The translations under genes and the position numbers were made by a program. This document shows, piece after piece, positions 19,927-44,562 of a stretch of 64,000 bases of DNA. How positions within the stretch are numbered: the first letter of the stretch is position 1; every line of letters begins with the position of its first letter. Source of the DNA: Mangrovicoccus sp. Lineage in GTDB: Bacteria > Pseudomonadota > Alphaproteobacteria > Rhodobacterales > Rhodobacteraceae. The stretch covers positions 19,576-83,575 of the forward strand of contig JBMYSZ010000015.1 of assembly GCA_049603835.1 (NCBI GenBank). Reading direction: 5' to 3'. The notes below the pieces were generated by a model, which saw only the letters and a program-made list of their open reading frames with translations, had not been told where the DNA came from and made no database searches.

Positions 19927-19937
19927 GCTTTGGCAGT

Positions 19938-19959
19938 GATGGGCAAATGCCCATCCTAC
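19938..19959. repeat. Single REP-like unit (GATGGGCAAATGCCCATCCTAC)
   Basis: Variant of the window-wide palindromic repeat, immediately 3' of rplW. Confidence 0.5.
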
Positions 19960-19970
19960 GCTTTTTGCAG

Positions 19971-19998
19971 CGCCTCCGCTTTTGCGGGGGCGTTTTGT
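19971..19998 (+). terminator. Terminator-like hairpin after rplW
   Basis: CGCCTCCGC-tttt-GCGGGGGCG followed by TTTTGTCT. Unexpected inside an S10 operon. Confidence 0.5.
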
Positions 19999-20125
19999 CT
20001 CATAAAGAGATTTCTTTGATTTTAGTGTATTCCTAATTTTGTGGAGCGTACATATTGGGGAGAAAGATCTCTAATTTGGACAAAGGGTTCTATTGAACCG
20101 AGCGCACGACGAAGGGAGGTAGACA

Positions 20126-20635
20126 ATGAACATCAATGCAGACCTCGCTGACCCCTCAGTACCAGTCTCCGATGCGTTGAACGTGGCTAATGAAATTCTG
20201 AAAATTGCAAAGCGCGAAGGTTTAGCTTTGACGCCTATGCAGTTAGTCAAGTTGACATATATCGCTCATGGATGGTCGCTTGCCATTCTCGAGCGTGATC
20301 TCTTTCAGGACCGGATTGAGGCTTGGAAATACGGTCCGGTTATTCCAGTGCTTTATCATGCTACAAAAAAATACGGTCGCGGAGTAATTCCTCTAGATTT
20401 AATAGATGAGGATACGCCGTCTCCCTTTGATGCCGATGTTACCGCATTGTTAGAAGATGTGGTGGCAAAATATGGGAACCTTAGCGGATACGCTTTGTCT
20501 AATTTAACGCACCGGGATGGAAGCCCATGGCAACAAGTGTTTAGGGAAGGTGTGATGAATATTCCCATAGGAGATGAAATTATCTCTCAGCACTATGGGG
20601 AGAAGCTCGATGCCTATAGACGTTCCACCTCCTGA
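20126..20635 (+). CDS. Panacea-domain (DUF4065 / COG3600 GepA-SocA-like) protein; putative PanA-type antitoxin or adaptor
   Basis: 169 aa. The strong SD GGGAGG lies 8 nt upstream. The segment ALNVANEILKIAKREGLALTPMQLVKLTYIAHGWSLAILERDLFQDRIEAWKYGPVIPVLYHATKKYG matches the conserved DUF4065 core (…ITNLKLQKLLYFAQGW…PLF.E.IEAW.YGPV.P.VY). Confidence 0.75.
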   Translation: MNINADLADPSVPVSDALNVANEILKIAKREGLALTPMQLVKLTYIAHGWSLAILERDLFQDRIEAWKYGPVIPVLYHATKKYGRGVIPLDLIDEDTPSPFDADVTALLEDVVAKYGNLSGYALSNLTHRDGSPWQQVFREGVMNIPIGDEIISQHYGEKLDAYRRSTS

Positions 20636-20960
20636 TGGTCCACTACCAGGACGTTGGGCGCAAGACGAAAGCGCTAGAAGAGAAAATCGCGACTGGGCGG
20701 ATGAAAGAAAATTAAGGGAAGCAAAGACATCGGCCGAGATTCTTTGGGCTAAATCCTACGGTTGGGCTATGATCGCGTTCCTAGCAGTGTTTTCGCTTCT
20801 TTTTTTGGGTAGTTTATCTGCCTGGTCACTTCATTACCTATTACCTGTCAAGTTTCATTGGTTGAGTTCTGATCAACTGTCAAAAGTTCAGTCTGTAATT
20901 TTTAGCGGAAGCCTTGGCGGTGTCGTGTCATTTGTTGCGCAAAAGCAATTGTCGAAATAG
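20610..20960 (+). CDS. Small single-pass membrane protein (toxin/effector candidate) overlapping the 3' end of the Panacea gene
   Basis: 116 aa from ATG 20610, with SD GGGGAGAAG 5 nt upstream. In-frame alternative starts lie at 20574 and 20595. It has a charged N-terminus, one hydrophobic helix (YGWAMIAFLAVFSLLFLGSLSAWSL) and a short C-terminal tail. The start overlaps the upstream stop by 26 nt. Confidence 0.55.
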   Translation: MPIDVPPPDGPLPGRWAQDESARRENRDWADERKLREAKTSAEILWAKSYGWAMIAFLAVFSLLFLGSLSAWSLHYLLPVKFHWLSSDQLSKVQSVIFSGSLGGVVSFVAQKQLSK

Positions 20961-21151
20961 CAAACCGCGTTCATAAAACTCCTAGACCCCCCTCTACCCA
21001 TCTGCTATTAGCGCCGGACCTAAACGGCCTCGGATTCGTTCCGGGGCCTTCTCTATTATAATTCGGGCACCTTCGGGGGCCTTTATTTGGGACCTGAGTC
21101 CGCGATCTCGCATCGCAAAAAAGGGCCCTCTAACAACGGAAGACAGAAACT

Positions 21152-23410: not shown

Positions 23411-23824
23411 ATGCTACAGCCAAAGCGTACAAAATTCCGCAAAATGCATAAGGGCCGGATCCATGGCGAAGCCAAGGGCGGTAACCTTTTGAACTTTGGT
23501 CACTATGGCCTGAAAGCGACCGAGCCAGAGCGTGTGACTGCACGTCAGATCGAAGCGGCTCGTCGTGCCATGACGCGTCATATGAAACGTCAGGGCCGGG
23601 TTTGGATCCGGATCTTCCCGGATCTGCCTGTGACCTCCAAGCCGGTTGAAGTCCGGATGGGTAAAGGTAAAGGCTCGGTGGATTACTGGGCTTGCAAAGT
23701 GAAACCGGGCCGGATCATGTTCGAGATCGACGGTGTTTCAGAGGGCATCGCCCGCGAAGCGCTGCGTCTGGCGGCCATGAAATTGCCGGTGAAAACCCGC
23801 GTCGTGGTTCGCGAAGACTGGTAA
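23411..23824 (+). CDS. rplP: 50S ribosomal protein L16
   Basis: 137 aa. [16 protein letters not shown]... is a typical L16 N-terminus. Confidence 0.95.
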
Positions 23825-23836
23825 GCCTCTGCCAAT

Positions 23837-23942
23837 GATGGGCATATTGCCCATCCTACGAAATTGACCCCCGTCGTTACTTTAGCGGCGGGGGTTTTTT
23901 AATGTCGCGGATAGTGGGAGTAGGATGGGCATTTTGCCCATC
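23837..23942. repeat. Inverted pair of REP-like units bracketing a terminator
   Basis: GATGGGCATATTGCCCATCCTAC (23837-23859) and GTAGGATGGGCATTTTGCCCATC (23920-23942). Confidence 0.6.
23868..23900 (+). terminator. Rho-independent terminator immediately after rplP
   Basis: CCCCCGTCG-ttactttag-CGGCGGGGG followed by TTTTTT. Confidence 0.7.
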
Positions 23943-23987
23943 ATTGCCGTGAGATCGCGCGGCGGTTGATGCTCACCACGAAAAGCT

Positions 23988-24455
23988 TTAGCCGAGGCAG
24001 AGTGTGGTTTTCTGCGCCTGGCAGGCGGCGATCCGGTGCGGATAAGCGGCGCGATAGTCGTCTAGCTCAAACAGTGCCAATAGCGCTTCGGGATTTGGAT
24101 AGGTGCCAATCGCCACCAAATCCCAATCTTCTTCGCCGCCGATAAAGCTAGCTCCAAATGGCGCCACGAGCAAAAACCGGCCGCCAATTTTTTCGAGGCT
24201 CGGCATGCTCACCGCTGCATAGCGCTGGAACGCGTCTTGCCCCGAAACCGCCGCTGCATCCGCAGGATCACTCCCTGCAGGATAGGCTGCGATCCCTCGC
24301 ATTTTAAAGAAATTCACTAGGGTCACCGGCTGATCTTCGGGCAAGTCTATCAGCTCTGCCCAGGCGGCTTTATTGGGTAAGCCAACGCCCTCATCCCCCC
24401 ATTTGCCTAGGATAGCCTCAATACGTGCGGCGCGGTTTTGCGATGTCGAATTCAT
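23988..24455 (-). CDS. DUF1330-domain protein
   Basis: About 156 aa from MNSTSQNRAARIEAILG. Motifs PVTLVNFFKMRG...FQRYAAVSMPSLEKIGGRFL...EDWDLVAIGTYPNPEALLALFELDDYR fit the DUF1330 profile. The ORF-track N-extension is not supported. Confidence 0.55.
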   Translation of the reverse strand: MNSTSQNRAARIEAILGKWGDEGVGLPNKAAWAELIDLPEDQPVTLVNFFKMRGIAAYPAGSDPADAAAVSGQDAFQRYAAVSMPSLEKIGGRFLLVAPFGASFIGGEEDWDLVAIGTYPNPEALLALFELDDYRAAYPHRIAACQAQKTTLCLG

Positions 24456-24580
24456 GCGTCTCGTCTCCAAAAACTTCCGCCCCTCATGAGCGGTTGCGCA
24501 ACACCTATTGGCAAAGTACATATTCACAAGTAGGCAATTATTTTTGGGGTAGTACGCTTTTTGGTACTATTGGAGGCCGC

Positions 24581-24952
24581 ATGACCCAGCAAACCCAACA
24601 AAACCAGCCCGCCATTCCGGCAACTGCGGCCGGTATGTGTCAGCTGCCATGTCCCATGCCCGATATCGTTTCCCTGGTGGGCGGCAAATGGAAACTGATC
24701 ATCCTGCAAATTTTGGTCTTTGACGGCACGCAGCGTTTCGGTGAACTCAAGCGCCGCCTTGAGGGTGTCAGCCAAACCATGCTGACCAATCAGCTCCGTG
24801 GGTTAGAGGCAGATGGGCTGGTCTTCCGCAAGGTCTATGCCGAAGTGCCGCCGCGGGTCGAATATAGCGCCACGCCCTTGGCCCAGGATATGCAGCCGGT
24901 TTTCTTCGCCTTGCGCGATTGGTGGAAACGAAACCATCCTGAGCCGAAATAA
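24581..24952 (+). CDS. HxlR-family winged-helix transcriptional regulator
   Basis: About 123 aa from ATG 24581 (SD GGAGG at 24572). CPMPDIVSLVGGKWKLIILQIL...TQRFGELKRRLEGVSQTMLTNQLRGLEADGLV matches the HxlR fold. It is divergent from the DUF1330 gene. Confidence 0.7.
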   Translation: MTQQTQQNQPAIPATAAGMCQLPCPMPDIVSLVGGKWKLIILQILVFDGTQRFGELKRRLEGVSQTMLTNQLRGLEADGLVFRKVYAEVPPRVEYSATPLAQDMQPVFFALRDWWKRNHPEPK

Positions 24953-25060
24953 ATAAAGTAAGTTTCGAATTTAGCCATTAATGCCGCATTTCTCTTCACA
25001 TTGTTGGCGTGGTAATTGTTTTGACACCCCTCCGCGCTGCAGAAGAGAGCTCTGATTTCC

Positions 25061-26059
25061 ATGACAGTTTATGCGATTAATGGCCTTGGCCGCATGGGGA
25101 AGCTGATGCTGCGCCCCTTCCTAGAGCGCGGCGGTGAGCTGGCTTTTCTCAATGATCTGAACGCCACACCGGAGATGATCGCGCATCTGCTAGAATTCGA
25201 CACGATCCATGGTCGCTGGCCTGCGGAATTCGGTTTTGATGAAAACTCGATCCAGATTGATGGCCTGAAACTGCCGCTGCTCAATGAGGCGCGGATAGAA
25301 GATCTGCCACTTGACGGCGTCGATGTGGTGATCGATTGCACCGGCGTTTTCAAATCCGAAGCCAAGCTTGCCGCTTATTTCGCCGCCGGGGTGAAGAAGG
25401 TTGTGGTCTCCGCTCCGGTCAAAGACGGCCCCACGGCGAATATCGTCTATGGCGTCAATCAGCACATTTATGATCCGGCCGAACATCAGATCATCACTGC
25501 CGCAAGCTGCACAACCAATTGCATCGCGCCAGTGGTGAAGGTTCTGCATGAAGAGATCGGTATCAAACACGGCTCGATCACGACCATCCATGACGTGACC
25601 AATACGCAAACAATCGTGGATAAGCCCGCCAAAGATCTGCGCCGGGCGCGCTCTGCGATGAATTCCTTGATCCCTACCACCACCGGTTCGGCCACGGCGA
25701 TCACCTTGATCTATCCCGAGCTGACGGGGCGTCTGAATGGCCATGCGGTCCGGGTGCCTTTGCTCAATGCCTCGCTCACCGATTGCGTTTTCGAGATGGA
25801 GCGCGAAGTAACCGTCGAAGAGCTGAATGCCCGGTTCAAAGCGGCTGCAGAGGGGCCTTTGAAAGGGATCTTAGGATATGAAGAGCGACCGCTTGTTTCG
25901 GCGGATTACGTAAATGATCCGCGTTCGGGGATCGTCGATGGATTGTCCACAATGGTGGTCAATGGCACCCAAGCCAAGATCTATGTCTGGTATGATAACG
26001 AATGGGGCTATGTGTATCGCCTGGTCGATGTGGCGATGATGGTGGGGGAGGCGCTTTAA
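25061..26059 (+). CDS. gap: Type I glyceraldehyde-3-phosphate dehydrogenase-family protein (likely a second, accessory copy)
   Basis: 332 aa with a Rossmann N-terminus (INGLGRMGK), the catalytic SCTTNC motif and the C-terminal WYDNEWGY. Confidence 0.75.
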
Positions 26060-26110
26060 GCGCCGCCGCTCGGGTTTGGGCCAGGGGCCTCTAAGGGGCT
26101 AAGGGGGGTC

Positions 26111-27480
26111 TCAGGCCATTTGCGCCATGGATTGTGGGGCCGGGGCGCGCCGCCGCTCTGGCATGCGCCGTCTCTGCCGGGGCCGCGCTGTCCCCGCCGG
26201 GCTTGACCCGGCGGCTCTTTGCCCAGGGGTTTCGCTATAGCCTTCCGACAGGATCTGGGCAAAGACCCAATTCATTAGCGCCATGCCAGAAGCCGAAGCC
26301 AACACCAAAGGCAGGCCGCCAATATAATAGCTCAGCCCCGAAAGCAGCGTGCCAATCAAACGCCCCGCCGCATTGGACATATAGTAAAAGCCTACATCCA
26401 TGGCGGCGCGATCATCCTTGGTAAAGGCGAGGATGAGATAGGAATGCACCGAGGAATTCACCGCAAAGATCGCCCCAAAGATCAGCAGCCCCACCACCAG
26501 CACCGCAGTGAGCCAGCCCACCGGCCCGCCAGCGAGTAGCGCGGCAATGGTCAGCGCCACTGGCACAGTTACCAAAATCCCTGCCCAGCGGCGTGCCAAT
26601 TGGACAACGTCCTTTAGCTCTTTATCCTTAGCTTTCAGGAATTTCGGCGCATAGGCCTGCACCGCCCCATAGCCCACCAGCCATAGTGCCATAAAGGCGC
26701 CGATCATGAAAAAGGCCATGCGCATTCCTGGCACGGTGCCATCGCTTAGCACCTGATAGAAATAGGCGGGGATCCCGACCACAAACCAGGCATCGCGCGC
26801 GCCAAAGAGGAAAACTCGGGCGGCGGAGAGAATATTGATATTGCGATCCTTGGAAAAGACCTCTTGGAATTTCGCCGATTTTCGCCCAGTGGGCAGACCG
26901 CGCGGCATAAAGCTAAAGACCAGGCTCAACACCACGGCGAGGGCCACGGCCATGGAAAGCGTCGCCCCGGTAAAACCCAAAAGCGCCAGCAGAGCAGCGC
27001 CAAGCAAAAAGCCCAGCCCCTTCACCGCATTCTTTGAGCCGGTCAGCGCGGCGACCCATTTGAACAGCGCGCCTTTCTCTTCCTTTGGTGCCAGCAATTT
27101 CACCGCGCTTTTAGAGCTCATCTTGGTGAGGTCTTTCGCAACCCCGGCGCAGCCCTGCACCACCATCACAAAAGCGACGGAGGCCCAAAGCGCCCAAGCC
27201 GGGTTGAGCTGGGCCAGGGCAAGCAGAGCGCCGATTTGCAGCACAAGCCCCGCATAAAGCGTGACCGTCAGGCCAAACCGCGCGGCGAGCCATCCCGCGG
27301 TCAGATTGGTCACCATGCCCATGAATTCATAGAGTAAGAACATGAAAGCCAGCTGCACCGGGCTGAAGCCCAAAGTCTCAAAATGTAGCAGCACCAGCAT
27401 GCGCAAAGCGCCATCGGTGAGCATAAAAGCCCAATAGGCCGCCGTCACGGCAATATAAGCGGCAACAGGATTATGGTCGC
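26111..27480 (-). CDS. MFS transporter (true start uncertain)
   Basis: The C-terminal ~430 aa of the 657-aa ORF (from ...NPVAAYIAVTAAYWAFMLTDGALRMLVLLHF) form a 12-TM MFS-like core. The Ser/Arg/Pro-rich N-terminal extension is unlikely to be translated; the real start is probably a GTG or TTG near 27,400-27,500. Confidence 0.5.
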
Positions 27481-28209
27481 CGCGTCCATGCAGACGATCT
27501 TTCAGCGATGATTTTTGCGGCTGCGTGCTGGTCGCGCCTTCGCCCTTATTCGATAGGAAAGACAGCTTATCCGCGAAGGGGTTGGCCGGGCCGAAGCCGA
27601 ATTTTGCGGCGCTAGAAAGAGCGGCAAGGCCGAGACATAGCCCAATAAAGGCCAGGCCTGCTTGCTGCACCGAGGTGGAAAAAATGGCGACGGTTGAGAT
27701 GCCAAAAGCCACAACCGTCGTCCAAAGCGCGGAGCTTGTCCAAAAGCTGCTGCTTGTCTTTGCTTCGGCTCCCGCATCAGGCTTTGGCGTCCAGACTAGG
27801 GGAGGGAAGGCATAGCTCCGGCCATTCTTTGTCGCGTCCAGGCTACGCCAGCTGGGGCGCAATTTCGTGCGCGGCTTGGGGCGATCGACCGAGATTGTCC
27901 GCCCTTTGAGCTCGTGCAGCGACACAGAGGACTGACGCGAAGCTGTCGATGCGGCGGGCCTTGTCTGGGTAGGTTCGGGCACCTGCTTGCGATAGCGCTT
28001 TGGCGGGACACGGCGAGACATTTTTGAGGCGGCGCGAGATGCAGACATAGGGGAACTTCGAAAATCGTGATCAATTCGCCCCAATTTAGCCCGATAACTT
28101 TCGAAATGACTACTATTATATCCCGAATATTTTGCAGATCTTGGCAGATTGCGGCGGGAATGTTACCTAGCGCCAATGCGAATGCGGAGCTTTGAGGTAG
28201 CAAGCGGTA

Positions 28210-29529
28210 GTGTCTTCAGCGTCTTCAGTGGCTGCGGTTTGGCCAGCGAAAGAAATTTGGCTTTTGGCCCTGCGCGGCGGCGCTTCGGTGCTCAATGGCA
28301 TTTTGGCGGCCCTCGCTTTGCGGGCCTTCCCCGATCTTGATGCTATCGCCCGGCTTTCGCCTATTTTTATTCTTTTTGTAGCCATCGCACTGCTCACCGA
28401 TAGCAATCTGCGAGAGATGCTGCATGGGCATGTGGTGCTGGATTGGGTTAATCGCCGCTATGACGCTCTCCGGGCGGAAATTTCCCAGGCGCCCAAAGGG
28501 ATTGCCGCGCTTCGGGCGGTCAATTCTGGGGATCCCGTGGCGCTGACGGGCCATGTGGCGCTGGCGCTCAATAGTGTCTTTGCGATTTTAGCAGTGCTGG
28601 CGGGGCTCGCGATTTTATCGCGGGCGGCCTTTATTTTGCATCTGCTGGCCGTGGCGGTGATTGCGGCGATTTTATTTGTGGCATGGCTGGAAAAGGGCTT
28701 TGCCGCGCGGCTATCGGCTTGGCCGCATCTGCTGCCGAGCTTGGCTCTGGTCACGACGATCTTGCAGGTTTTCTTGCTGCCCGCGCTTTTGCCTGGCACC
28801 TCGACCGAGATTTTGGCCGGTTGTGCGATCCTTTCCCTGGCCATGGCTTTGCCGATCACGCGGATTGCCGATTTGCCCGAAAGCTTTGCGCTTCTGCGCG
28901 ATTTGCACCAACTGCCCCAGGGGGGGGACGATACGGAAACTCAGCCACCGCCACCGCCGCTTGGTTTTTCGGTCGATGGGCAAAGCTTTGGCGCGGGGGA
29001 TTGCCTGGTGATCCATTGCCGAACTGCGGTGCAGCAGCGTCAGATTATGCGTGGTTTTTCCGGGTCAGAGCCTTTGCCCAGCCATGTCGCCCAAGATCTT
29101 GGAGCCCAGGATAGCGCCATGGACGTGGCGCGGATTGCCCAGCAAACAGCCCCGGTTTTCGCCGATCCTATGCCATTCGTGCCGCCCATCACCGCAAGCG
29201 CTGCGCCGATTGCCTTGGGTCCGCTTGCCCATGCTTTGGAGTTGCCCGAAGATATCCTGACTTGGCCCGGCGGCTTTTTGCATCTGGAGGATGCTGTGCC
29301 AGGACCGGGGCTATTGGGCGCTATTTGCGATCCGCGTCCAGTGATCTTAGCGGAAATGCCAAAACGCTTTTTCGGGCCCACAGAGGCGGTGAAACGTCGG
29401 GCTTTGCTGGCAGCGGCGGCGAAATCCGGCAAGGTGCTGATCTGTGTCACCCATGGCGCCGCGCCGCCCGAGCCTAAGGGGGCGAAATTTTTGCTCATCG
29501 ATCTCACCCAAAAGGCCGCCCAGCCATGA
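28210..29529 (+). CDS. Hypothetical protein: N-terminal multi-TM domain plus a C-terminal soluble domain with degenerate ABC-NBD-like remnants
   Basis: 439 aa with a hydrophobic N-terminal half. The C-terminal half shows faint ABC-ATPase-like strings (GDCLVIHCRT..., KRRALLAAAAKSGKVLICVTH) but no Walker A motif. Its stop overlaps the next start (ATGA). Confidence 0.4.
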   Translation: MSSASSVAAVWPAKEIWLLALRGGASVLNGILAALALRAFPDLDAIARLSPIFILFVAIALLTDSNLREMLHGHVVLDWVNRRYDALRAEISQAPKGIAALRAVNSGDPVALTGHVALALNSVFAILAVLAGLAILSRAAFILHLLAVAVIAAILFVAWLEKGFAARLSAWPHLLPSLALVTTILQVFLLPALLPGTSTEILAGCAILSLAMALPITRIADLPESFALLRDLHQLPQGGDDTETQPPPPPLGFSVDGQSFGAGDCLVIHCRTAVQQRQIMRGFSGSEPLPSHVAQDLGAQDSAMDVARIAQQTAPVFADPMPFVPPITASAAPIALGPLAHALELPEDILTWPGGFLHLEDAVPGPGLLGAICDPRPVILAEMPKRFFGPTEAVKRRALLAAAAKSGKVLICVTHGAAPPEPKGAKFLLIDLTQKAAQP

Positions 29530-30374
29530 GCCCGCTTTTCCTGCTTTGGCGCATGATCACCGCCCAGCCGCGTATCGGGATCGTTTTGATCTTTCTGTCC
29601 ATCGCGGCGGCTCAGGTGCATGCCACGCTGCTTTTGCTGATCGTGACGAAAATCGCTGGGCTGCTCGACTTGGCTGACCGCTCTGTCACGCTTTGGATGC
29701 CGCTGCTCACGGGGCTCGCCAGCGTCGCGCTAGAAATCTTTGCGGGCTATTTCTCGCGGGTGTTTGCGACGGATCTGGAAGAAAAGCTCGACTTGCCCAA
29801 ACCGATCCTAGAAGAGCATTGCCGCTTGTTGCGCATCGCCTGCGCTTTGGCCTCGATCCTAGTGATGCTGTTTGTGTTCAATTGGGGACTGTTTTTGGCG
29901 GGAACTGTTTTACTGGCCTCGCTTTTGCGGGCGCTTTGGCGCGCAACGAATGAAAGCAAACCTGCCATGGAAGAGCAAAGGCGCGCGCAAGCGGTGATCG
30001 ATGAGAGCCTAGCGCAAATCGCCCAAAGCCCCGATACGGTGCGGGCCTATCCCGAAGCTGTGCGCGACATGCTGGGGCAAAGCATACGGGCCGATTTCAT
30101 CGCCGAGGGCCAGCGCGTACATGCGGCCAGCAAAGCCGGGGGGCGGCTGGGCTTCTGGTCGTTATTTCGCTGGTATATCGTGGTCTTTGCGGCGCTTTTC
30201 CTGTTGCCGCAATATGGGCTGAGCCCTCCAACTGTGCTGATCCTTTTGGCCTATCAATTGGTGTTGCTGGATCAATTCTCTAGCCTTTATCTCGCCCAAG
30301 CGCGGCGGATTGAGGCAGGGTCGCCAATGGAGCAAGAGATTTGGCAAGAAGTTGAGACATTCTTTGTTCGCTGA
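29526..30374 (+). CDS. ABC exporter transmembrane-domain-like protein (MsbA-like N-terminal TMD, no ATPase domain)
   Basis: 282 aa. DRSVTLWMPLLTGLASVALEIFAGYFSRVF closely resembles the MsbA TMD segment DRSVLVWMPLVVIGLMILRGITSYVSSY. Translationally coupled to the upstream ORF. Confidence 0.5.
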   Translation: MSPLFLLWRMITAQPRIGIVLIFLSIAAAQVHATLLLLIVTKIAGLLDLADRSVTLWMPLLTGLASVALEIFAGYFSRVFATDLEEKLDLPKPILEEHCRLLRIACALASILVMLFVFNWGLFLAGTVLLASLLRALWRATNESKPAMEEQRRAQAVIDESLAQIAQSPDTVRAYPEAVRDMLGQSIRADFIAEGQRVHAASKAGGRLGFWSLFRWYIVVFAALFLLPQYGLSPPTVLILLAYQLVLLDQFSSLYLAQARRIEAGSPMEQEIWQEVETFFVR

Positions 30375-30490
30375 TTGATTTTTAGCTAGCCTTAGGTCAA
30401 TGATTTGTTGAAAAGCGCTTTGTTGATCCTCTGGCATCATACAAAGTGCAGGGGCCATGAGGGCCCGATCTGATTTGGGCCAGACTTAAG

Positions 30491-31204
30491 GTGATTTCTA
30501 TGGCACGAACCACAAAGACGACCGGCACAAATGCTGACGAGACCGCAACCGACAAGGTTGAAGCGGTAAGCTCCGAAACCGAGGCCGAAGCTACAACCAG
30601 CGACGCGGCAAGCGCGGATGACAGCAAGGATGTTGTGGCTATGGACACCGCCGAGAGCGCGGAAGAGGCCAGCAGCGACGACATGGTTGAGCTGCCCTCG
30701 CAGGTTGAGATCGATAATCTGATCAAAGGCTATGTCATTGCCTCTATGGCCTCTGCGGCGATTCCGGTTCCGCCTGCCGATACGGCGGCGATCATCGCGA
30801 CCCAGGTGAAAATGATCCATGGCCTGGCCAAGCTTTATGATGTGCCATTCACCCGTGGCATCGCGCAAAATCTGGTTGTTTCGCTGATCGGCGGTGTTGC
30901 GCCTTTGGCGGTGACTATGGGCGTTGCGAGCCTGGCGAAAACCGTACCGGTGATCGGCACTTTTGGTGGCATGTCGGGCATGGTGATTTTGGCGGGCGCC
31001 TCTACTTATGCAACCGGCCAAGTTCTGGTGCATCACTTTGAGAATGGCGGCACTTTGGTGAATCTGGACACGGCGAAAATCCGCGAGGAATATCGCAATC
31101 AGCTGCGCAAAGGCAAAGAGCTGACCCGCCGTCTACGCGGCAAATCTGCCGAAGCGACCGCAGCAGAGAGCGTTAGTGCTGAGGGCGAGGCCCAGCCCGC
31201 CTAA
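30491..31204 (+). CDS. DUF697-like membrane-associated protein with an acidic low-complexity N-terminus
   Basis: 237 aa. The central region (KGYVIASMASAAIPVPPADTAAIIATQVKMIHGLAKLYDVPF...LIGGVAPLA) resembles the DUF697/YcjF C-terminal domain. Confidence 0.4.
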   Translation: MISMARTTKTTGTNADETATDKVEAVSSETEAEATTSDAASADDSKDVVAMDTAESAEEASSDDMVELPSQVEIDNLIKGYVIASMASAAIPVPPADTAAIIATQVKMIHGLAKLYDVPFTRGIAQNLVVSLIGGVAPLAVTMGVASLAKTVPVIGTFGGMSGMVILAGASTYATGQVLVHHFENGGTLVNLDTAKIREEYRNQLRKGKELTRRLRGKSAEATAAESVSAEGEAQPA

Positions 31205-31231
31205 TCCCGCCCTTTTGCGGAAGTTATCGTT

Positions 31232-32770
31232 TTGCGTGTGACCAAAGAAGATGTGAGCCCTCGGCGGAAGAAACCTGCTCCGCCGAGCTCTTGGCGCGAG
31301 CGACTGCATCGGATAGGGCGCGCCTTTAGCCGGATCTCTTTGGCGGTGGTGGTTCTCTTTTTGCTGCTGCTGGCTGCGATTTATCCGGCGGTGGTGCGGG
31401 TCGTCCCTGCCGGTGCGGCGGGGGTGATTTATAAGCCCCTGCGCGGCGGGACAGTGACAGACCGGATCTTTGGTGAAGGGGTCCATGTCAAATATCCTTG
31501 GGATACGCTTTACGTCTATAATACCCGGATCCAAACGATCCTGCATGATTTCACGGTTCTGACCAATAAGGGCCTGCCGGTCACGCTGCGCCTGGCGATC
31601 CGGTTTCATCCCGAGCGCGAGATGATCGGGCGGCTGCATAAGCAGGTTGGTCCGAATTACGCCGAGACGATTATTGTCTATCAGATCGAGTCTGTGCTCA
31701 GGAAACGTCTGGGCAAGGAAGACCCCGAAGACATTTACACCAATCGCTCGGGCACGCTGACGGATGTCTTCGAAAATGCGATTGAGGAAGTGGGCCAGCG
31801 CTATGTGCGCATCACTGATGTGATCATCCGCGAAATCGTGTTGCCAAGCCAGGTTGTGGCAGCAATCGAGGAAAAGCTGGTGCATCAGCAAAAGCTTGAA
31901 GCCTATGAGTTCCGCTTAGAAACCCAAGCCCGCGAGGCAGAGCGGATGCGGATCGAAGCGGCGGGGATCCGCGATTATCAAGCAACCATCAATGAAACCC
32001 TGAGCAAAGATCTGATCGTTTGGCAGGGGGTGAATGCAACGGTTGAGTTGGCGCAATCGGATAATGCCAAAATCGTGGTGGTCGGCTCGGGCGATAAGGG
32101 GCTGCCGGTGATTTTGGGCGCGGATAGTTTTGCCACTGGCCCAGAGGGGACGGGTGGCGGAGCGGGCTTGGCTGGCCCCGGCGCGGCGGTGGCCGCAAAT
32201 GCGGCGTCTGCGCCTGCGCCTGCGCCTGCGGAGCCCGGCGGAGCTGGGGCTATGGTGATGTCTCCCGATTTGCGTCTCTCCAGCGCCGCGCTTCCCCCGA
32301 TGCAAGAGCAAGTCCAAAGTCCGGTATCAGAGCCGGTGCCGCAGCAATCGCCCCGCCCTGGTCTAGAGCCGCTGCCGCAGCTTTGGGCCTTTTTGCCGCC
32401 CTTCCTGCAACCCAAAGAGGGGCCCGTGCCAAGCCAAGATCCAGCCGCGCCGCGCGCTGCACATGAGGCGGTGCCCTATGTCAGCGCGGCCGAGCAAACC
32501 GGCGCGACAGCTGCGGCGGGCGTCAACTCATACGGGCCGATGCGCCGCTATTCGCCTCTTGCGGGTGAAGCCATGCCGCCCTTTGTGTCGATCTTCCAGC
32601 GCCGCTATTCCCTGCCGCTCGATCCGGTCTTTGATCCGCATGCGCAAAATGGCAGCCCCGTCGCCGGGCGTTTGGGGCCAACCAGTCAGCACACAGCGCG
32701 GGCGCAGATTGGCAAACGCGGCTTGATTGCGGCGGAATTCCTGCAAAATCCATCTGATATTCTGCCATGA
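31232..32770 (+). CDS. SPFH/band-7 (prohibitin/HflC-like) domain protein with a long Pro/Ala-rich C-terminal tail
   Basis: An N-terminal TM helix followed by an SPFH core (VVRVVPAGAAGVIYKPLRGGTVTDRIFGEGVHVKYPWDTLYVYNTRIQT...). The C-terminal ~200 aa are low complexity. Confidence 0.6.
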   Translation: MRVTKEDVSPRRKKPAPPSSWRERLHRIGRAFSRISLAVVVLFLLLLAAIYPAVVRVVPAGAAGVIYKPLRGGTVTDRIFGEGVHVKYPWDTLYVYNTRIQTILHDFTVLTNKGLPVTLRLAIRFHPEREMIGRLHKQVGPNYAETIIVYQIESVLRKRLGKEDPEDIYTNRSGTLTDVFENAIEEVGQRYVRITDVIIREIVLPSQVVAAIEEKLVHQQKLEAYEFRLETQAREAERMRIEAAGIRDYQATINETLSKDLIVWQGVNATVELAQSDNAKIVVVGSGDKGLPVILGADSFATGPEGTGGGAGLAGPGAAVAANAASAPAPAPAEPGGAGAMVMSPDLRLSSAALPPMQEQVQSPVSEPVPQQSPRPGLEPLPQLWAFLPPFLQPKEGPVPSQDPAAPRAAHEAVPYVSAAEQTGATAAAGVNSYGPMRRYSPLAGEAMPPFVSIFQRRYSLPLDPVFDPHAQNGSPVAGRLGPTSQHTARAQIGKRGLIAAEFLQNPSDILP

Positions 32771-33978
32771 GACGGCTGCGCTATATTGCATCCGTGCTGG
32801 TGATCGCGGTGATGGTGCAAATTTCGGGGCTCGTGGATCTGGGCCTGCGTCTTGGCTCGCAAAGCCTGACCCTGCCGCGGCTGCCCGAGCCGGATTTCCC
32901 TGAGCCCGGCGAGAGCTGGATGATTGGCGTCTATTATTACGAGGCTCTGCATCCCGGATTTCTTGCGGGCGCAGAGCTGGCCGAGGCGGAGATCAATGCC
33001 AAGGGCGGCATTTTGGGACGCCCCATCAAGATCAAGGCGGTGGATGAAGCTGGGTTTTCGGAACGTGCCGAAGAGCGCAATCTAGCCGCCCGGCGCCATT
33101 TCGATCATGATCGAGTTTTGGCGGTGATGGGCGGGTCGTCAGATCTGATTATTCGTAATGCCTCGGATTGGTTTGACGATCTTGGGATCCTCTATTTCAA
33201 TCCGCTCTTTCCGCTGTCCAATGTGGGCAATCCAGGCAAGCCCTATGTCTTTGCCACGATCCCCGATCGCGAGCGGATCGGCGATAACCTGGCCCAAGCC
33301 ATGAGCGAAATGGGGGCAACGCGCATCGCGATTGTGGCAAGTCGGGAGCGGGCCGCGCAAGAGATCCGGCATTCGATCCAAGATATTGCCCCGAGCCTGG
33401 CTTTAGACGTGGTGGCGGATCTGGGTATGGCAGGGGCGGATGCCAGTTATATCGACGAGCTGGTTCGCCTCAGCTCGGCCCAGCCCGAGGCGATTGCGCT
33501 TTTGCTGCCCAAAGCCGAACGCGAGGTGTTTTTGCGCCAAGCCGCTCGGATGAAGCTGAATGCGCCGATTTTCTTAGGCCATCCGGAGGGGATCGTGCCA
33601 TGGGCCGAGGATTTCGCGGGGCTCACCGCAACGGAATGGCCAGAACTGGAACTGTGGCAGGCGGAACCGCTGGAAAATCCACGCGCCGATAGGGCCGGGC
33701 TGTCACGCTTTCAAACCAGCTATCAGAGCCGCTTTGATCAAGCTCCGAGCTATTGGGCCGCCCAAGGATATGATACTTTGCGGATGATCGCGCAGGTGGC
33801 GGAAGAGATTGGGTCGGATCACCCGCTCCAGATTGCCACGGCGCTGAATACGCAAACCGCCTGGACAGGCATTACCGGCCCGCATTCTTTCACCAATTCG
33901 GGTCGGATCTATACGAAGGACTGGCCTTATGGGCCGCTGCGCCTCACAGATTTGGCGCGTAACACTCTAAGCCATTGA
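32767..33978 (+). CDS. Periplasmic substrate-binding protein, LivK/branched-chain amino acid-binding (type 1 PBP) family
   Basis: 403 aa with an N-terminal signal anchor. WMIGVYYYEALHPGFLAGAELAEAEINAKGGILGRPIKIKAVDEAG is typical of Leu/Ile/Val-binding proteins. Its start overlaps the SPFH stop (ATGA). Confidence 0.55.
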   Translation: MRRLRYIASVLVIAVMVQISGLVDLGLRLGSQSLTLPRLPEPDFPEPGESWMIGVYYYEALHPGFLAGAELAEAEINAKGGILGRPIKIKAVDEAGFSERAEERNLAARRHFDHDRVLAVMGGSSDLIIRNASDWFDDLGILYFNPLFPLSNVGNPGKPYVFATIPDRERIGDNLAQAMSEMGATRIAIVASRERAAQEIRHSIQDIAPSLALDVVADLGMAGADASYIDELVRLSSAQPEAIALLLPKAEREVFLRQAARMKLNAPIFLGHPEGIVPWAEDFAGLTATEWPELELWQAEPLENPRADRAGLSRFQTSYQSRFDQAPSYWAAQGYDTLRMIAQVAEEIGSDHPLQIATALNTQTAWTGITGPHSFTNSGRIYTKDWPYGPLRLTDLARNTLSH

Positions 33979-33987
33979 GAGGCAGCT

Positions 33988-34173
33988 ATGATCATCGTCA
34001 AAGCGCATATGATGCCAGCAATTTTGATCTATCTTAGCATTTGCGGGGTGATCGGGCTGATGGGGCGGCGCAGAAAGCTGGGGGGCTGGGCGTATTTCTT
34101 TGCCTCGATCTGCCTGACGCCGTTGATTGGCTTTCTGCTCATCTCCGCATCGGATCCGCGTCCGCGATGGTGA
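33988..34173 (+). CDS. Small two-TM membrane protein (PLDc_N-like)
   Basis: 61 aa with AGAGG 7 nt upstream. GWAYFFASICLTPLIGFLLISAS resembles the PLD-nuclease N-terminal small membrane domain. Its stop overlaps the next ATG (ATGGTGA). Confidence 0.35.
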   Translation: MIIVKAHMMPAILIYLSICGVIGLMGRRRKLGGWAYFFASICLTPLIGFLLISASDPRPRW

Positions 34174-34961
34174 GAGCCTGGGCTTTTGGCGCGGCGCTTT
34201 TGGCAAGCCTGCCAGGTGCGGCATTGACGGAGACCCGGCGCGATCATGTGAAGCTGGCAGTGCCTTTCGCGCTGTTGCCTTATGCCCAGGCCGAGGCGAG
34301 CGCCTTTGCGGCAGAGCATCCGTTTAAGTTTCCCGAACTGCTTTCAGCGCGGGATTCGGCTATGCCATGGCTTTTTTGCCGGGGCGGGGTTTCTGATAGC
34401 CCGGATATGGGCCTGGCTTTTGCGCCGCTAAGCGCAGAGATTTCGGAGCTTTGCGCGACTTTTGGCAAAACCGATCTGACCCAGATGGCGGGCGGGGGGA
34501 TGCAGCTTTCGGCTTTTGCTCTGACCTCGCGTGATTTGGCGGGGATCGATTTGGCTGAGCTTGATTTGGCAGAGCTGAGCGCGGGGGATCTGTCTTGGCA
34601 GGATCTGCGGAGCGATCTGCCCGATGCGCCTTTGCGCTTTTATTTGCCAGGGGATGCGGCGCGGCTGGCTTTTGCTCAGGCCTTAGCAGAGCAATGTTCG
34701 CAGGAGGAGGGCTGCGCCTTTGAGCAAAGCCTGGCCAGCTATGAAAGCTTGCGCCGCCCGGAGGATCTGGATCCGAATGGGATCTATTTTATACCCGGCT
34801 CGGGCGCGGTGCAGCTGATCGGCTGGAGCCAGCTAGAGATCCAGCCTCAGATCGAGTTGCCGCTATATCTTTGGCTCAGAACCGAGCGGATTGAGACAGT
34901 AATTGGGGCAAAGCCGGCTGTGAAAGCATTGGCCCTTTGCGGCGGTGACAGTGCCTGTTGA
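34167..34961 (+). CDS. Hypothetical secreted protein
   Basis: Signal peptide MVRAWAFGAALLASLPGAALT, translationally coupled to the upstream small ORF. No recognisable domain, and the sequence is Asp/Leu-repetitive. Confidence 0.3.
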   Translation: MVRAWAFGAALLASLPGAALTETRRDHVKLAVPFALLPYAQAEASAFAAEHPFKFPELLSARDSAMPWLFCRGGVSDSPDMGLAFAPLSAEISELCATFGKTDLTQMAGGGMQLSAFALTSRDLAGIDLAELDLAELSAGDLSWQDLRSDLPDAPLRFYLPGDAARLAFAQALAEQCSQEEGCAFEQSLASYESLRRPEDLDPNGIYFIPGSGAVQLIGWSQLEIQPQIELPLYLWLRTERIETVIGAKPAVKALALCGGDSAC

Positions 34962-34969
34962 GCCCGAGC

Positions 34970-34992
34970 GGTGGGCCAATTGCCCACCCTAC
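34970..34992. repeat. Single REP-like unit (GGTGGGCCAATTGCCCACCCTAC)
   Basis: Near-perfect copy of the consensus palindrome. Confidence 0.5.
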
Positions 34993-35058
34993 ATTGCCTT
35001 CGCCATTAGCTCTGCTTGCGGCAGGCCTTAAACTTTGGGATAGGGGCCTCGCCTGGTT

Positions 35059-35700
35059 TTGCCCATAGGAGGTCCATCAATGGCCGAGATTGAATCGCTT
35101 TTTGTCACCCGCCTTTACCGCGCAGCTTTAACGGAATTCGGCGATACAATCGATCCGCAAGAGCTAGAGGCGTCTTGCTTTTCTATCGCCGAGGATGATG
35201 AGGCGGGCCAAGACTGGTGCGAGGAGAATGGCTATCCCGGCTATACGTCTTATGCCTCGCTCACGGATTTGCCCTGGCGCTTTCCAATTTTCGCCGATGT
35301 GGTGGCGGCGCTTGATAAACATGTGGCCGAATTTGCCAAGGATCTGGAATTCAATCTTGATGGCCGCGACTTGAAGCTCGAAGATCTGTGGATCAATATT
35401 CTGCCCGAAGGCGGTATGCATAGCTCGCATCTGCACCCGCATTCGGTGATCTCTGGTACGACTTACGTGTCTATGCCGAAAGGCACCAGCGCGCTGAAAC
35501 TGGAAGATCCGCGCTCGGGCCGGATGATGGCCGCGCCGGCCCGGATCAAAGACGCCCGGCGGGAGCTGCGGACCTTTGTCTATGCAGAGCCAAAGGCTGG
35601 CGATGTGCTGCTTTGGGAAAGCTGGCTGCGCCATGAAGTGCCGATGAATATGGCGGAAGAAGAGCGGGTCAGCGTCAGTTTCAACTACGCTTGGGCTTAA
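35059..35700 (+). CDS. TIGR02466-family putative 2OG-Fe(II) oxygenase-like protein
   Basis: 213 aa. LFVTRLYRA... at the N-terminus, with HLHPHSVISGTTYVSMP...WLRHEV...VSFNYAW matching the conserved family architecture. Confidence 0.55.
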   Translation: MPIGGPSMAEIESLFVTRLYRAALTEFGDTIDPQELEASCFSIAEDDEAGQDWCEENGYPGYTSYASLTDLPWRFPIFADVVAALDKHVAEFAKDLEFNLDGRDLKLEDLWINILPEGGMHSSHLHPHSVISGTTYVSMPKGTSALKLEDPRSGRMMAAPARIKDARRELRTFVYAEPKAGDVLLWESWLRHEVPMNMAEEERVSVSFNYAWA

Positions 35701-36298
35701 CGGGCACCCGCTTTGCCACTTCGCTGACTGTGGAATGGGCCAGATCGCTGGCCATGACCACAAAGATCAGCAAGGTCGATCCGGCAAAGGCAACGGTCAG
35801 GTTCAGATTTGCGGTCAGGCTAAGCCAATCCGTGTCGACTTTTGGCGATACGCTTTGGAACAGGCAAGAAAAGGTCGCATAGCCTAGGATAAGGTGGCGT
35901 ATGGCCCAGGTTTGCTTGCTTCGGGGCAGAACCGAGCGGCACAGCATATATGCCAGCGCTAAGGCCGATTGCACACAGAAATACAGCACCGGATGTGCGC
36001 GGGGCGCGTCGTCAAAGGCAAAGAAATGCCAGGGAAAGGCAAGGGCGCATCCCAGCGGGAAGAAGAGCAATACGAGGGTGGTCAGTTGTTTGCGGGTGGC
36101 ACAGATCTGGGCCGAGCGGGCGACAGCGGCGATGCCATGGATCCAACCGCCGATCCCCACAAAGGCCATGGCGACCGCAAACAGGCCCGCACCTTTATAG
36201 ACCACCGCCATGCGCGAGGCGAGATTGAGAAAGCCCATGACCGAGAAGGTGGTCAGGACCCATTTCGTATCTGGGCGAGATATCAGCTGCTGCAACAT
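35681..36298 (-). CDS. Hypothetical polytopic membrane protein
   Basis: 205 aa, hydrophobic throughout. Convergent with the TIGR02466 gene. Confidence 0.35.
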   Translation of the reverse strand: MLQQLISRPDTKWVLTTFSVMGFLNLASRMAVVYKGAGLFAVAMAFVGIGGWIHGIAAVARSAQICATRKQLTTLVLLFFPLGCALAFPWHFFAFDDAPRAHPVLYFCVQSALALAYMLCRSVLPRSKQTWAIRHLILGYATFSCLFQSVSPKVDTDWLSLTANLNLTVAFAGSTLLIFVVMASDLAHSTVSEVAKRVPVKPKRS

Positions 36299-36387
36299 GG
36301 CCGCTCTGGTGCCTCAGTCGGGCGTCGGTTACAAGGCTACAGAGCGCGCAGAGCCGCTTGACTGAATGGGAAAAGCTAGTGCGGTGC

Positions 36388-36446
36388 GATGGGCAAATTG
36401 CCCATCCTACATTTGGGCGGCGAGTAGGGTGGGCAATTTGCCCACC
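36388..36446. repeat. Inverted pair of REP-like units upstream of rpmC
   Basis: GATGGGCAAATTGCCCATCCTAC (36388-36410) and GTAGGGTGGGCAATTTGCCCACC (36424-36446). Confidence 0.6.
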
Positions 36447-36595
36447 AATCTCTGTAATGCGGCCGATTTTCCTTGTCATCGGCCTGTCACTCTCCTATAG
36501 GGGCCGCTCATCCACTACCTCCATCGGAATCAGGGTGACCCGCCGCGGATGCGGAATAGGGGCCTTCCGGTGACGTTGAACAAAGGAATAAGGCT

Positions 36596-36802
36596 ATGAA
36601 AGCCAGTGAACTGCGCGATCAGACCCCTGATCAGCTGCGCGAAAAGCTCGTAGAGCTGAAAAAAGAGGCGTTCAACCTCCGCTTCCAGCAGGCAACCAGC
36701 CAGCTTGAAAACACCGCTCGGGTTCGTCAAGTGCGCCGCGATGTTGCGCGCGTGAACACCATCTTGAACGAAAAAGCTGCAGCCGCAGCAGCGGAGGCTT
36801 GA
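36596..36802 (+). CDS. rpmC: 50S ribosomal protein L29
   Basis: 68 aa. [31 protein letters not shown]... is a typical L29 N-terminus. Confidence 0.93.
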
Positions 36803-36806: not shown

Positions 36807-37037
36807 ATGCCCAAAAGAATTCTGCAAGGCACTGTCACCAGCGCCAAAAACGACCAGACCGTCACTGTCCGCGTCGAGCGTCGCTTTAAGCACCCGGTTT
36901 TGTTGAAAACCATCAAGAAATCCAAGAAGTATCGCGCTCATGACGAGCAAAATACTTACAAGGAAGGCGATCAGGTTCGCATCATTGAATGCGCGCCGCG
37001 ATCCAAAACGAAACGCTGGGAAGTGCTGACCGCTTAA
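36807..37037 (+). CDS. rpsQ: 30S ribosomal protein S17
   Basis: 76 aa. [25 protein letters not shown]... is a typical S17 N-terminus. Confidence 0.95.
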
Positions 37038-40919: not shown

Positions 40920-40944
40920 TCCCTCTCTTTGAGCAAGAAATTAA

Positions 40945-41878: not shown

Positions 41879-41954
<76 letters not shown>

Positions 41955-44549: not shown

Positions 44550-44562
44550 CTACCCCAAGGCC

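Follow-up and report, generated by a model that had tools for sequence, protein, structure and literature searches.

We analysed a 64,000-nucleotide stretch of DNA from a Mangrovicoccus species (contig JBMYSZ010000015.1, positions 19,576 to 83,575; hereafter the window) in which the series of ribosomal protein genes is interrupted between rplP, encoding ribosomal protein uL16, and rpmC, encoding uL29. The rpoBC-str-S10-spc-alpha cluster is a textbook case of nearly unchanging gene order. In the window rplP (23411-23824, + strand; PF00252, E = 1.4e-54) is preceded by rpoB, rpoC, fusA, tuf, rplW and then rplB through rpsC, and it is the final gene of the rplB-rplP transcription unit. The rpmC gene (36596-36802, + strand; PF00831, E = 2e-26) opens a second unit, with rpsQ (36807-37037) directly 3' of it and the remaining genes of the unit extending through rpmD. 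Where the S10 and spc genes are contiguous, rplP and rpmC are separated by a few tens of nucleotides without a terminator, whereas in the window the spacing is 12,771 bp and includes both a terminator and approximately 13 non-ribosomal genes. We describe here the contents of this interval, its counterparts in other Alphaproteobacteria, and a conserved RNA leader preceding rpmC, which together suggest that the junction is a family-wide, transcriptionally insulated seam in which genes have probably accumulated repeatedly.

The interruption had been noted in a sequence-only reading of the window, and the observation is confirmed as correct and well outside chance expectation. The same reading described the composition of the block as host-like, and this holds as well: GC content is 0.55-0.64 per kb, GC content at third codon positions (GC3) is 0.59-0.70, and every gene of the block equals the flanking core and ribosomal genes. 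The arrangement is also recovered in three overlapping, separately assembled Logan contigs (SRR27204692) that match the window at 100% and between them reproduce both junctions. Contig L097 covers 23784-26401 (the 3' end of rplP to arsJ), L091 covers 26372-35628 (arsJ to a 2-oxoglutarate (2OG)-Fe(II) oxygenase gene), and L098 holds the 3' end of the 2OG gene, a membrane protein gene, rpmC and rpsQ.

Domain and tRNA searches found no integrase, transposase or tRNA gene within 23.8-36.6 kb, and a repeat search gave neither long direct repeats nor att-like duplications at the block borders. The block thus shows neither the mobility genes, nor the tRNA or att repeats, nor the deviant composition of a genomic island. 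Additionally, PADLOC returned no match for any of ten proteins from the gaps, among them the Panacea pair described below.

The rplP-rpmC junction in other Alphaproteobacteria

Related loci were collected by a scan for RplP using one genome per species, which covered at least 600 stretches, and at least 80 loci were compared; the best rplP identity among the matches listed is 92%. The nearest genomic contexts were taken from homologues of the 2OG protein rather than from the RplP scan. In 29 loci from other alphaproteobacterial orders (Hyphomicrobiales, Caulobacterales, Hyphomonadaceae and others) the gap between rplP and rpmC is 15-56 nt, and for these orders the baseline assumed by the sequence-only reading, that rpmC follows rplP within a few nucleotides, is borne out. 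Among the loci labelled Rhodobacterales, the gap is 33-41 nt in three (a few deep metagenome-assembled genomes, MAGs), 83-219 nt in ten and 0.8-8.6 kb in 27, and in six further loci rpmC is not found within 10 kb of rplP. The split is therefore not universal in the order, but a gap of at least 83 bp is present in 37 of the 40 closed Rhodobacterales-labelled loci. Among the matches listed, no other closed gap is as large as that of the window. In an independent metagenome sample, the distance between the two genes ranges from 149 to 3217 bp (28 contigs). A similar difference is seen at the rplW-rplB junction, where the gap is 8-59 nt outside Rhodobacterales and up to 5.7 kb inside.

The sequence-only reading had proposed that the 12.7 kb was inserted into an intact junction, and had named the same arrangement being the norm across the order as the result that would contradict this. 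An interrupted rplP-rpmC junction is the norm in Rhodobacteraceae, and the proposal is for that reason largely overturned. The comparison suggests that the split is ancestral in the family. The block is not one 12.7 kb insertion, since the terminator and the 2OG gene, like the promoter and leader of rpmC, are common to the family; only approximately 11 kb (about 23.9-35.0 kb) is lineage-specific. At least part of the 1.6 kb on the right is ancestral, as it includes the 2OG gene, the promoter and the leader, together with a membrane protein gene that has no homologue in the related loci. The smallest gaps of this kind (141-219 bp; L006, L011, L012 and L036) contain the leader without any cargo gene, and three of the four have the terminator, as would be expected if two transcription units met at an insulated seam.

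The other genes carried in the gap differ from locus to locus, even among the nearest relatives compared. Beside the 2OG gene there are a DUF6634 gene and a 76-aa open reading frame (ORF) in a congeneric MAG (L092), a DUF2334-like gene and a 283-aa ORF in Albibacillus kandeliae (L093), and sulfotransferase, SHOCT and BrnT/BrnA genes in the locus with the nearest 2OG relative (89%; L096). In L086 (1-8100) a tyrosine integrase, an MmeI-type restriction-modification system, a helix-turn-helix gene and Mrr are found 5' of the 2OG gene; this island varies between strains with identical RplN. In the sister contigs L082 and L087 (1-8000) the corresponding place 5' of the 2OG gene is taken by polA, DUF2459, an ABC ATPase and other genes, and rplP lies outside the locus, which suggests that rplP and rpmC are fully disconnected there. 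With the exception of the 2OG gene, the genes of the block in the window were found in none of the related loci compared.

Terminator, promoter and a conserved rpmC leader

A GC-rich hairpin followed by a T-run occurs within 130 nt of the rplP stop codon in approximately 43 Rhodobacterales loci. In most of these loci (approximately 40), as well as in the window, it belongs to the sequence type AAACCCCCGyCG...CGGCGGGGGTTTTT. The example in the window, at 23866-23896 (+ strand; type ACCCCCGyCG..CGGCGGGGGTTTTT), is the predicted intrinsic terminator of the rplB-rplP unit and agrees with the strong terminator that the sequence-only reading had placed after rplP.

The predicted promoter of the rpmC-rpmD unit lies at 36473-36501 (+ strand) and consists of TTGTCA (36473-78)-N17-TATAGG (36496-501). 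It aligns in position and spacing with the TTGCCA-N17-TATACG found in most relatives, and this family-wide match supports the suggestion that a new promoter may be present within 36,300-36,595. A generic promoter scan gave nothing near rpmC because it demands a T at position 6 of the -10 element; the putative promoter was found by comparison.

We identified a conserved RNA motif between this promoter and rpmC. Approximately 95 nt 5' of rpmC are kept at the DNA level in the family, with the consensus order TTGCCA-N17-TATACG, 18-21 nt, CUCCACCGGAAUCAGGGUGACC-(variable hairpin)-GGGGCC-y-CCGGUGAUGUUGAAAAGGAA, 7-10 nt, AUG. In the window the leader occupies 36518-36595 (+ strand), and covariance model R1 matches 36518-36598 with a score of 62 bits (E = 9e-16). 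The core hairpin (36522-36572) consists of a P1 stem (CAUCGG/CCGGUG), an AAUCA internal loop, a bulged stem (GGG-UGA-CCC) and a variable apical hairpin, and is followed on its 3' side by GACGUUGAACAAAGGAA, which includes the Shine-Dalgarno sequence. Across 96 sources (1.5 Mb), model R1 identifies one site per locus in 45, always directly 5' of rpmC, and no site better than E = 0.7 in other orders. In these 45 sources and in 55 metagenomic instances the site is 60-90 nt 5' of the rpmC ATG and 3' of the promoter motif.

In an alignment of 38 sequences, P1 is paired in 100% of cells, and all but one of its six pairs show compensatory changes; G-C is replaced by A-U in 12 sequences, for instance, and C-G by U-A in six. 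The P1 covariation score is 0.272 compared with 0.170 +/- 0.011 for shuffled alignments (none of 500 reaches the observed value) and 0.06-0.17 for controls with the 3' strand shifted out of register. RNAalifold gives the same helices unprompted. For the apical helix, P2, MAFFT gave no single register (86% paired, no compensatory pair), and it was omitted from the model. An assignment of the GGG-UGA-CCC bulge as a K-turn was dropped, as the non-bulged strand lacks the required G-A.

As an independent test, metagenome contigs were scanned with the 5' half of the motif only (CACYRGAAUCAGGGUGAC). This yielded 120 matches, of which 57 have rpmC 40-130 nt downstream and four more run off the contig end after a recognizable leader. 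The matching 3' hexamer is present in 50 of 55 distinct metagenomic instances, compared with 3 of 47 chance matches to the 18-mer. The hexamer pairs in these instances include CACUGG/CCAGUG (20 examples), CACCGG/CCGGUG (17), and G-U variants (8 and 2).

Searches of 36250-36700 against Rfam 15 (E <= 10) returned only spurious microRNA and snoRNA matches. There is no mention of rpmC or L29 in a survey of ribosomal leaders (PMC7247131) or in other motif surveys, and we found nothing on the rplP-rpmC split or on an rpmC leader in Rhodobacterales in the literature covered, which excludes subscription journals. The leader taken alone is likely a real cis-regulatory RNA. It may be an autoregulatory element that binds a ribosomal protein.

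Three loci from Paracoccaceae-labelled MAGs with short gaps of 83-97 bp (L004, L026 and L037) lack this leader and have a different motif, GUUUUGUUGGAAAAGC-hairpin-GACUUCUG, before rpmC. In two of the three a terminator-like hairpin precedes the motif, which may represent a second leader type.

A TIGR02466 oxygenase gene associated with the junction

The gene nearest to rpmC that is shared with relatives encodes a TIGR02466/PF13759 2OG-Fe(II) oxygenase (35080-35700, + strand; TIGR02466, 293.5 bits against a cutoff of 62.5; PF13759, 118.5 against 27). It is located in the gap or directly 5' of rpmC in 39 loci, in either orientation and with 65-86% protein identity, and it is present in 16 of the 30 metagenome contigs with sufficient upstream sequence. 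The orientation of the gene is largely structured by clade, and pairwise identities of the 2OG protein correlate with those of ribosomal proteins (Pearson 0.62), which fits mainly vertical descent with few inversions. The gene is probably not co-transcribed with the ribosomal genes, as it is often on the opposite strand and behind the rplP terminator. It is followed by a gene for a 205-aa membrane protein without a family match (35681-36298, - strand).

The protein is closely related to two crystallized proteins, PDB 3BVC (Ism_01780) and 2RG4 (from Oceanicola granulosus), with E = 1e-109 and approximately 75-80% identity; both are annotated as uncharacterized. Listed structural neighbours include the orthosomycin oxygenases EvdMO1 and AviO1, the Pseudomonas putida prolyl hydroxylase (PPHD) in complex with elongation factor Tu (EF-Tu), hypoxia-inducible factor (HIF)-type hydroxylases, and OGFOD1 and Tpa1. 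The hydroxylases that act on the translation apparatus (PPHD on EF-Tu, OGFOD1 and Tpa1 on uS12) are 12-17% identical to the 2OG protein, and other oxygenase classes score equally. The fold neighbours therefore place the protein in the prolyl-hydroxylase-like part of the superfamily, and the fold does not pinpoint its substrate.

The TIGR02466 alignment contains an invariant HLHPH cluster (residues approximately 117-121; 35395-35420), an equally invariant distal His and an R-x-S motif. The H-L-H-P-H sequence stands where 2OG oxygenases usually have H-x-D/E, and these conserved residues may bind the metal and 2OG.

Genes of the lineage-specific 11 kb

The 11 kb between the rplP terminator and the 2OG gene begins with a gene assigned to the DUF1330 family (23988-24455, - strand; PF07045, E = 5e-5, barely above the cutoff), encoding 155 aa as called on contig L097. 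Divergent from it is a gene for an HxlR-type transcription regulator (24581-24952, + strand; PF01638, E = 1e-27), which is located 5' of a gene for an ArsJ-associated glyceraldehyde-3-phosphate dehydrogenase (GAPDH; 25061-26059, + strand; NF033735, 537 bits against a cutoff of 450). The following gene is arsJ (26111-28084, - strand; NF033734, 524 bits against a cutoff of 400), encoding an organoarsenical efflux permease of the major facilitator superfamily (MFS). The GAPDH and arsJ genes are convergent and 51 bp apart, and both proteins score above family-specific hidden Markov model cutoffs. Based on these family matches, the DUF1330, HxlR, GAPDH and ArsJ genes appear to form a module that includes a known arsenate-detoxification pair.

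The match to NF033734 covers residues 209-610 of the maximal arsJ ORF of 657 aa. Because the ArsJ family match begins only at residue 209, the true start of arsJ is probably near 27460. The approximately 200 codons beyond the model (27460-28084, - strand) are rich in Ser, Pro, Arg and Lys and represent either a real N-terminal extension or non-coding sequence.

A seven-gene same-strand array follows. It opens with orf433/439 (28228-29529, + strand; GC3 0.63), which encodes a membrane protein without a close homologue, and its stop codon overlaps the start of orf282 (29526-30374, + strand; overlap 29526/29529), a hydrophobic protein with no family match. The array continues with genes for a DUF697 membrane protein (30500-31204, + strand; PF05128, E = 3e-13) and an SPFH/Band 7 protein (31346-32770, + strand, as called on L091; PF01145, E = 8e-26). 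The start of a gene for a LivK-like Peripla_BP_6 binding protein (32767-33978, + strand) overlaps the SPFH stop codon (32767/32770); no permease or ATPase gene adjoins it. A 61-aa ORF (33988-34173, + strand) and a 264-aa ORF (34167-34961, + strand) complete the array, the former without a Pfam, NCBIfam or PADLOC match and the latter with a weak PBP_like_2 match below the cutoff. The last approximately 200 residues of the SPFH/Band 7 protein (32200-32770) form a low-complexity tail rich in Pro and Ala, and the kilobase containing this tail has the window maximum in GC content, 0.64.

The gene list of the sequence-only reading therefore stands in most respects: the DUF1330, HxlR, GAPDH, MFS, DUF697, SPFH/Band 7, LivK-like Peripla_BP_6, TIGR02466/2OG-FeII_Oxy_5 and 205-aa membrane protein genes were recovered, and its extra GAPDH and MFS genes can now be named more precisely as ArsJ-associated GAPDH and ArsJ. 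The proposed degenerate ABC-like pair (orf439 and orf282) and PLDc_N-like micro-ORF (33988-34173) found no support in Pfam, NCBIfam or PADLOC.

A homologue search with orf439 against 1.84 billion representatives gave only two weak partial matches besides itself (E = 8e-7 and 9e-4). The best non-self homologue of the binding protein is 29% identical. As these searches with orf439 and the LivK-like protein returned only self-matches and proteins with 29-32% identity, the block was not seen elsewhere, and there is no sign that it exists as a contiguous locus in another genome, as had been proposed for checking. Apart from the operon in which the two genes tested lack close homologues, the cargo of the block is ordinary.

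Repetitive extragenic palindromic elements

The window contains eight copies of a short repetitive extragenic palindromic (REP) element with the motif G[AG]TGGGCA-nnn-TGCCCA[CT]C and a CTAC tail. All eight are intergenic and within the rpoBC-to-spc cluster, and none is expected from shuffled sequence. The sites are at 7928 (between rpoB and rpoC), 16535 (between fusA and tuf), 19938 (after rplW), 23837 and 23924 (after rplP), 34970, and 36388 and 36428. The copy at 23837-23859 (+ strand) consists of GATGGGCAtatTGCCCATC and the CTAC tail, and together with an inverted copy at 23920-23946 (- strand) it brackets the rplP terminator. Another copy (34970-34992, + strand) lies at the inner edge of the 11 kb, before the ancestral 2OG gene, and a second inverted pair (36388-36410, + strand; 36424-36446, - strand; 13 nt apart) precedes the rpmC promoter. 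From this pair to rpmC there are approximately 150 nt, all non-coding. A short palindromic unit in multiple intergenic copies with two inverted pairs is what defines a REP or a bacterial interspersed mosaic element (BIME).

The motif is absent from 96 related loci, including the congeneric locus L092. Given this absence and the eight intergenic sites, the element appears to be a generic, recently expanded repeat. Copies are expected beside the largest intergenic spaces, so that those at the block borders are uninformative about how the block arrived. The sequence-only reading had described identical inverted pairs at both borders; the pairs exist, but the copies are 83-96% alike rather than identical.

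Origin of the interval

We consider repeated gene accretion in a transcriptionally insulated seam to be the best explanation of these observations, and hold it with good confidence. According to this model, the S10/spc unit would have been cut between rplP and rpmC in Rhodobacteraceae, with the upstream rplB-rplP unit ending at the conserved terminator and rpmC-rpmD restarting from its own housekeeping-type promoter and structured 5' leader. DNA set between terminator and promoter would not be polar on ribosomal protein expression, so that the interval could act as a permissive seam holding other genes in other lineages. The TIGR02466 2OG gene would have come early and been passed on largely vertically with occasional inversions, and later cargo would have been added lineage by lineage, including toxin-antitoxin pairs, an integrase and restriction-modification island, sulfotransferases and others. 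In the window approximately 11 kb, comprising the ars module and the seven-gene membrane-associated operon, would have gathered between the rplP terminator and the 2OG gene. The terminator, the promoter motif, the covarying leader and the 2OG gene recur across the family and the cargo varies; insulation would be what caused the accretion. The block probably arrived in more than one step; we infer several because the ars module consists of widespread families, and the two tested genes of the membrane operon lack a close homologue.

Other explanations account for part of this evidence. The sequence-only reading envisaged an old intragenomic rearrangement in which recombination between inverted REPs carried a single 12.7 kb block into a previously intact junction of rplP and rpmC. 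REP pairs do occur near both ends, GC and GC3 are host-like, and the block lacks an integrase or transposase. However, the terminator, 2OG gene, promoter and leader inside the 12.7 kb are common to the family, so the junction was already open. In addition, REP sites extend from rpoB-rpoC to rpmC and are found in none of the 96 related loci, which points to recent spread rather than to anything specific to the borders; the repeats are just 23-27 nt long, and no close homologue of orf439 or the binding protein was found elsewhere. REP-mediated recombination thus lacks specific support, the model is contradicted for the whole 12.7 kb, and we regard it as very improbable. It is still less credible that the contig is a chimera fused at short repeats during assembly. 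The source is a MAG and REP copies lie at both junctions, but these are only about 23 nt long, dozens of isolate genomes show the same right junction (2OG gene, leader and rpmC), and the three Logan contigs, although they may share reads with the MAG, cover both junctions at 100%. A degraded mobile island, whose inner 11 kb integrated site-specifically, lost its integrase and came to resemble the host, is unlikely. The integrase, MmeI-type restriction-modification system and Mrr of L086, the toxin-antitoxin pairs in the rplP-rpmC or rplW-rplB gaps of L096, L092 and the window, and the absence of any close homologue of orf439 or of the binding protein, a hint of an unsampled donor, are consistent with such an origin. 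Against it, no integrase, transposase, tRNA or long direct repeat was found in 23.8-36.6 kb, PADLOC found no match, and GC3 is indistinguishable from that of core genes, unlike the clearly foreign Panacea pair (0.40-0.44).

A different kind of explanation is that the position is functional, such that the 2OG oxygenase, and perhaps other residents, act on the translation apparatus and need to be co-regulated or co-located with it. The 2OG protein is well conserved across the family and has kept its site through inversions. In E. coli, YcfD (RoxA), a JmjC-type enzyme, hydroxylates uL16, the product of rplP, the gene adjacent to this site; YcfD is, however, not among the structural neighbours listed for the 2OG protein. 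Since the 2OG gene is on the opposite strand in 12 loci and behind the rplP terminator, many split family members have no 2OG gene in the gap, and both crystal structures are annotated as uncharacterized, this explanation is possible but doubtful. A role for the 2OG protein in modifying the translation apparatus is an attractive reading with weak support. The joint proposal that the leader is a new ribosomal protein-binding autoregulator of rpmC-rpmD and that the TIGR02466 protein hydroxylates a ribosomal protein or translation factor, such as uL16, is improbable. If it were true, the rpmC and L2 leaders would be sisters and would jointly explain how the family split the near-invariant S10/spc unit, and the position of the 2OG gene would be functional and not accidental.

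Several points weigh against accretion in an insulated seam. The 2OG gene is strongly conserved at this site, possibly owing to a functional link with the ribosomal genes; the seam would then not be neutral. Terminator, promoter and leader are all predicted on the basis of conservation. When folded in full, the 91-nt leader of the window does no better than shuffled sequences (z = 0.28) and its minimum free energy structure differs from the consensus, so that single-sequence thermodynamics alone gives the leader structure no support; the isolated core of the window, like that of most relatives, folds into the consensus (-22.4 kcal/mol). Host-like GC and GC3 neither date an acquisition nor give its direction. 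The nearest genomes may have been missed among the matches listed, and a relative carrying part of the 11 kb is possible. Finally, the lineage-specific 11 kb has REP copies at either end (23837/23924 and 34970), and a role in recombination there is possible, though nothing supports it.

Other interruptions of the cluster

The rplW-rplB junction of the window (19927-21151) is a parallel case, with REP, terminator, cargo and leader in the same order. A REP copy (19938-19959) and a terminator-like hairpin (approximately 19968-19995) are followed by a low-GC island of approximately 1 kb (GC 0.45, GC3 0.40-0.44), a leader and rplB. The island holds a gene with a SocA/Panacea antitoxin domain (20126-20635; PF13274, E = 3e-18) and, overlapping it, a 128-aa ORF (20574-20960) that includes a hydrophobic stretch and is probably the toxin partner. 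Its composition looks recently acquired, unlike that of the rplP-rpmC block. The leader directly 5' of rplB (21065-21149, + strand) is an L2-Alphaproteobacteria leader (RF03142; 48.1 bits against a gathering threshold of 37.8). The window also has an example of the Rhodo-rpoB RNA motif (RF03074) just 5' of rpoB (3634-3722, + strand; 49.6 bits against 33.6).

The spc unit stops after rpmD (40919), and rplO, secY, adk, rpsM, rpoA and rplQ are absent from the remaining 23 kb of the window. The region that follows contains a VWA-domain gene (40995-41792), tRNA-Val(TAC) (41879-41954, - strand), a LuxR-type autoinducer-binding regulator (42323-43117, - strand), tRNA-Val(CAC) (43170-43244, - strand), tRNA-Asp(GTC) (44473-44549, + strand), a truncated Mutator-family transposase (47178-47882, - strand) and, within 40920-48000, a glycosyltransferase-like gene. 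In four related loci (L082, L084, L085 and L090) an ectoine-synthase-like cupin gene and a large TPR-sulfotransferase gene lie between rpmD and rplO, making this a third recurrent break point.

Implications

The anomaly in the window can thus be explained as a family trait in an unusually large local state. The whole family, which includes the ecologically important marine Roseobacter group and its relatives, cuts the cluster at rplW-rplB, at rplP-rpmC and often at rpmD-rplO, with a predicted terminator on one side of each cut and a predicted promoter and leader on the other. These cuts serve as landing sites for arsenic resistance, toxin-antitoxin and restriction-modification genes and for genes without close homologues, and they offer a natural test of whether insulation, rather than sequence-specific integration, makes insertion hotspots. 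The analysis yields a well-supported candidate rpmC RNA leader outside Rfam, and it flags a structurally solved oxygenase family for which the conserved site by rplP gives a concrete hypothesis. It also calls for caution in annotation, as the operon boundaries of E. coli should not be assumed in Rhodobacterales. Measured against the literature searched, the family-wide rplP-rpmC seam, the conserved rpmC leader and the constant association of TIGR02466 with the site seem to be new.

Comparison with known systems

The L2-Alphaproteobacteria leader, the gapdh-arsJ pair, and insertions into the ribosomal cluster of other classes were already known. The L2-Alphaproteobacteria leader (RF03142) resembles the rpmC leader in being a structured leader directly 5' of rplB, a ribosomal protein gene that other bacteria have inside the S10 operon. 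The genes listed as regulated by it are rplB, rpsS, rplV and rpsC (Eckert & Weinberg 2020, PMC7247131), which is consistent with an rplB unit that does not reach rpmC. However, the rpmC leader has another sequence and another structure and is located at another junction.

In known arsenic resistance systems GAPDH makes 1-arseno-3-phosphoglycerate, which ArsJ exports (PMC5930303, PMC9601151). The pair in the window is like those of Halomonas GFAJ-1 (PMC5930303) and Vibrio cholerae (PMC9601151) in that the two genes are adjacent and both proteins exceed the NCBI cutoffs. It differs in that the genes, being convergent, are not part of a single operon, in having an HxlR-type regulator where an ArsR-type regulator is usual, and in having no other ars genes nearby.

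The REP elements resemble the REP and BIME sequences of enterobacteria and pseudomonads, which are likewise short imperfect palindromes with an asymmetric tail, intergenic, multi-copy, and often arranged as inverted pairs beside 3'-end terminators. The sequence here is unrelated and lineage-specific, and no REP-associated tyrosine transposase (RAYT) gene was found within the 64-kb window.

Insertions into the conserved ribosomal cluster have been described in Gammaproteobacteria and Bacilli, where tusDCB, bfd-bfr, nrdHEF and ilv-leu genes are found within it; after insertion synteny is often wholly lost, which the author reads as relaxed selection (PMC8046335). The Rhodobacteraceae are similar in that rpmC is more than 10 kb from rplP in some lineages and in that rplO-secY-rpoA do not follow rpmD in the window. 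However, the insertions described in that study are mostly single, clade-defining and between operons, whereas the break in Rhodobacteraceae lies inside one E. coli operon, has a content that varies between species, and is accompanied by its own conserved terminator, promoter and leader.

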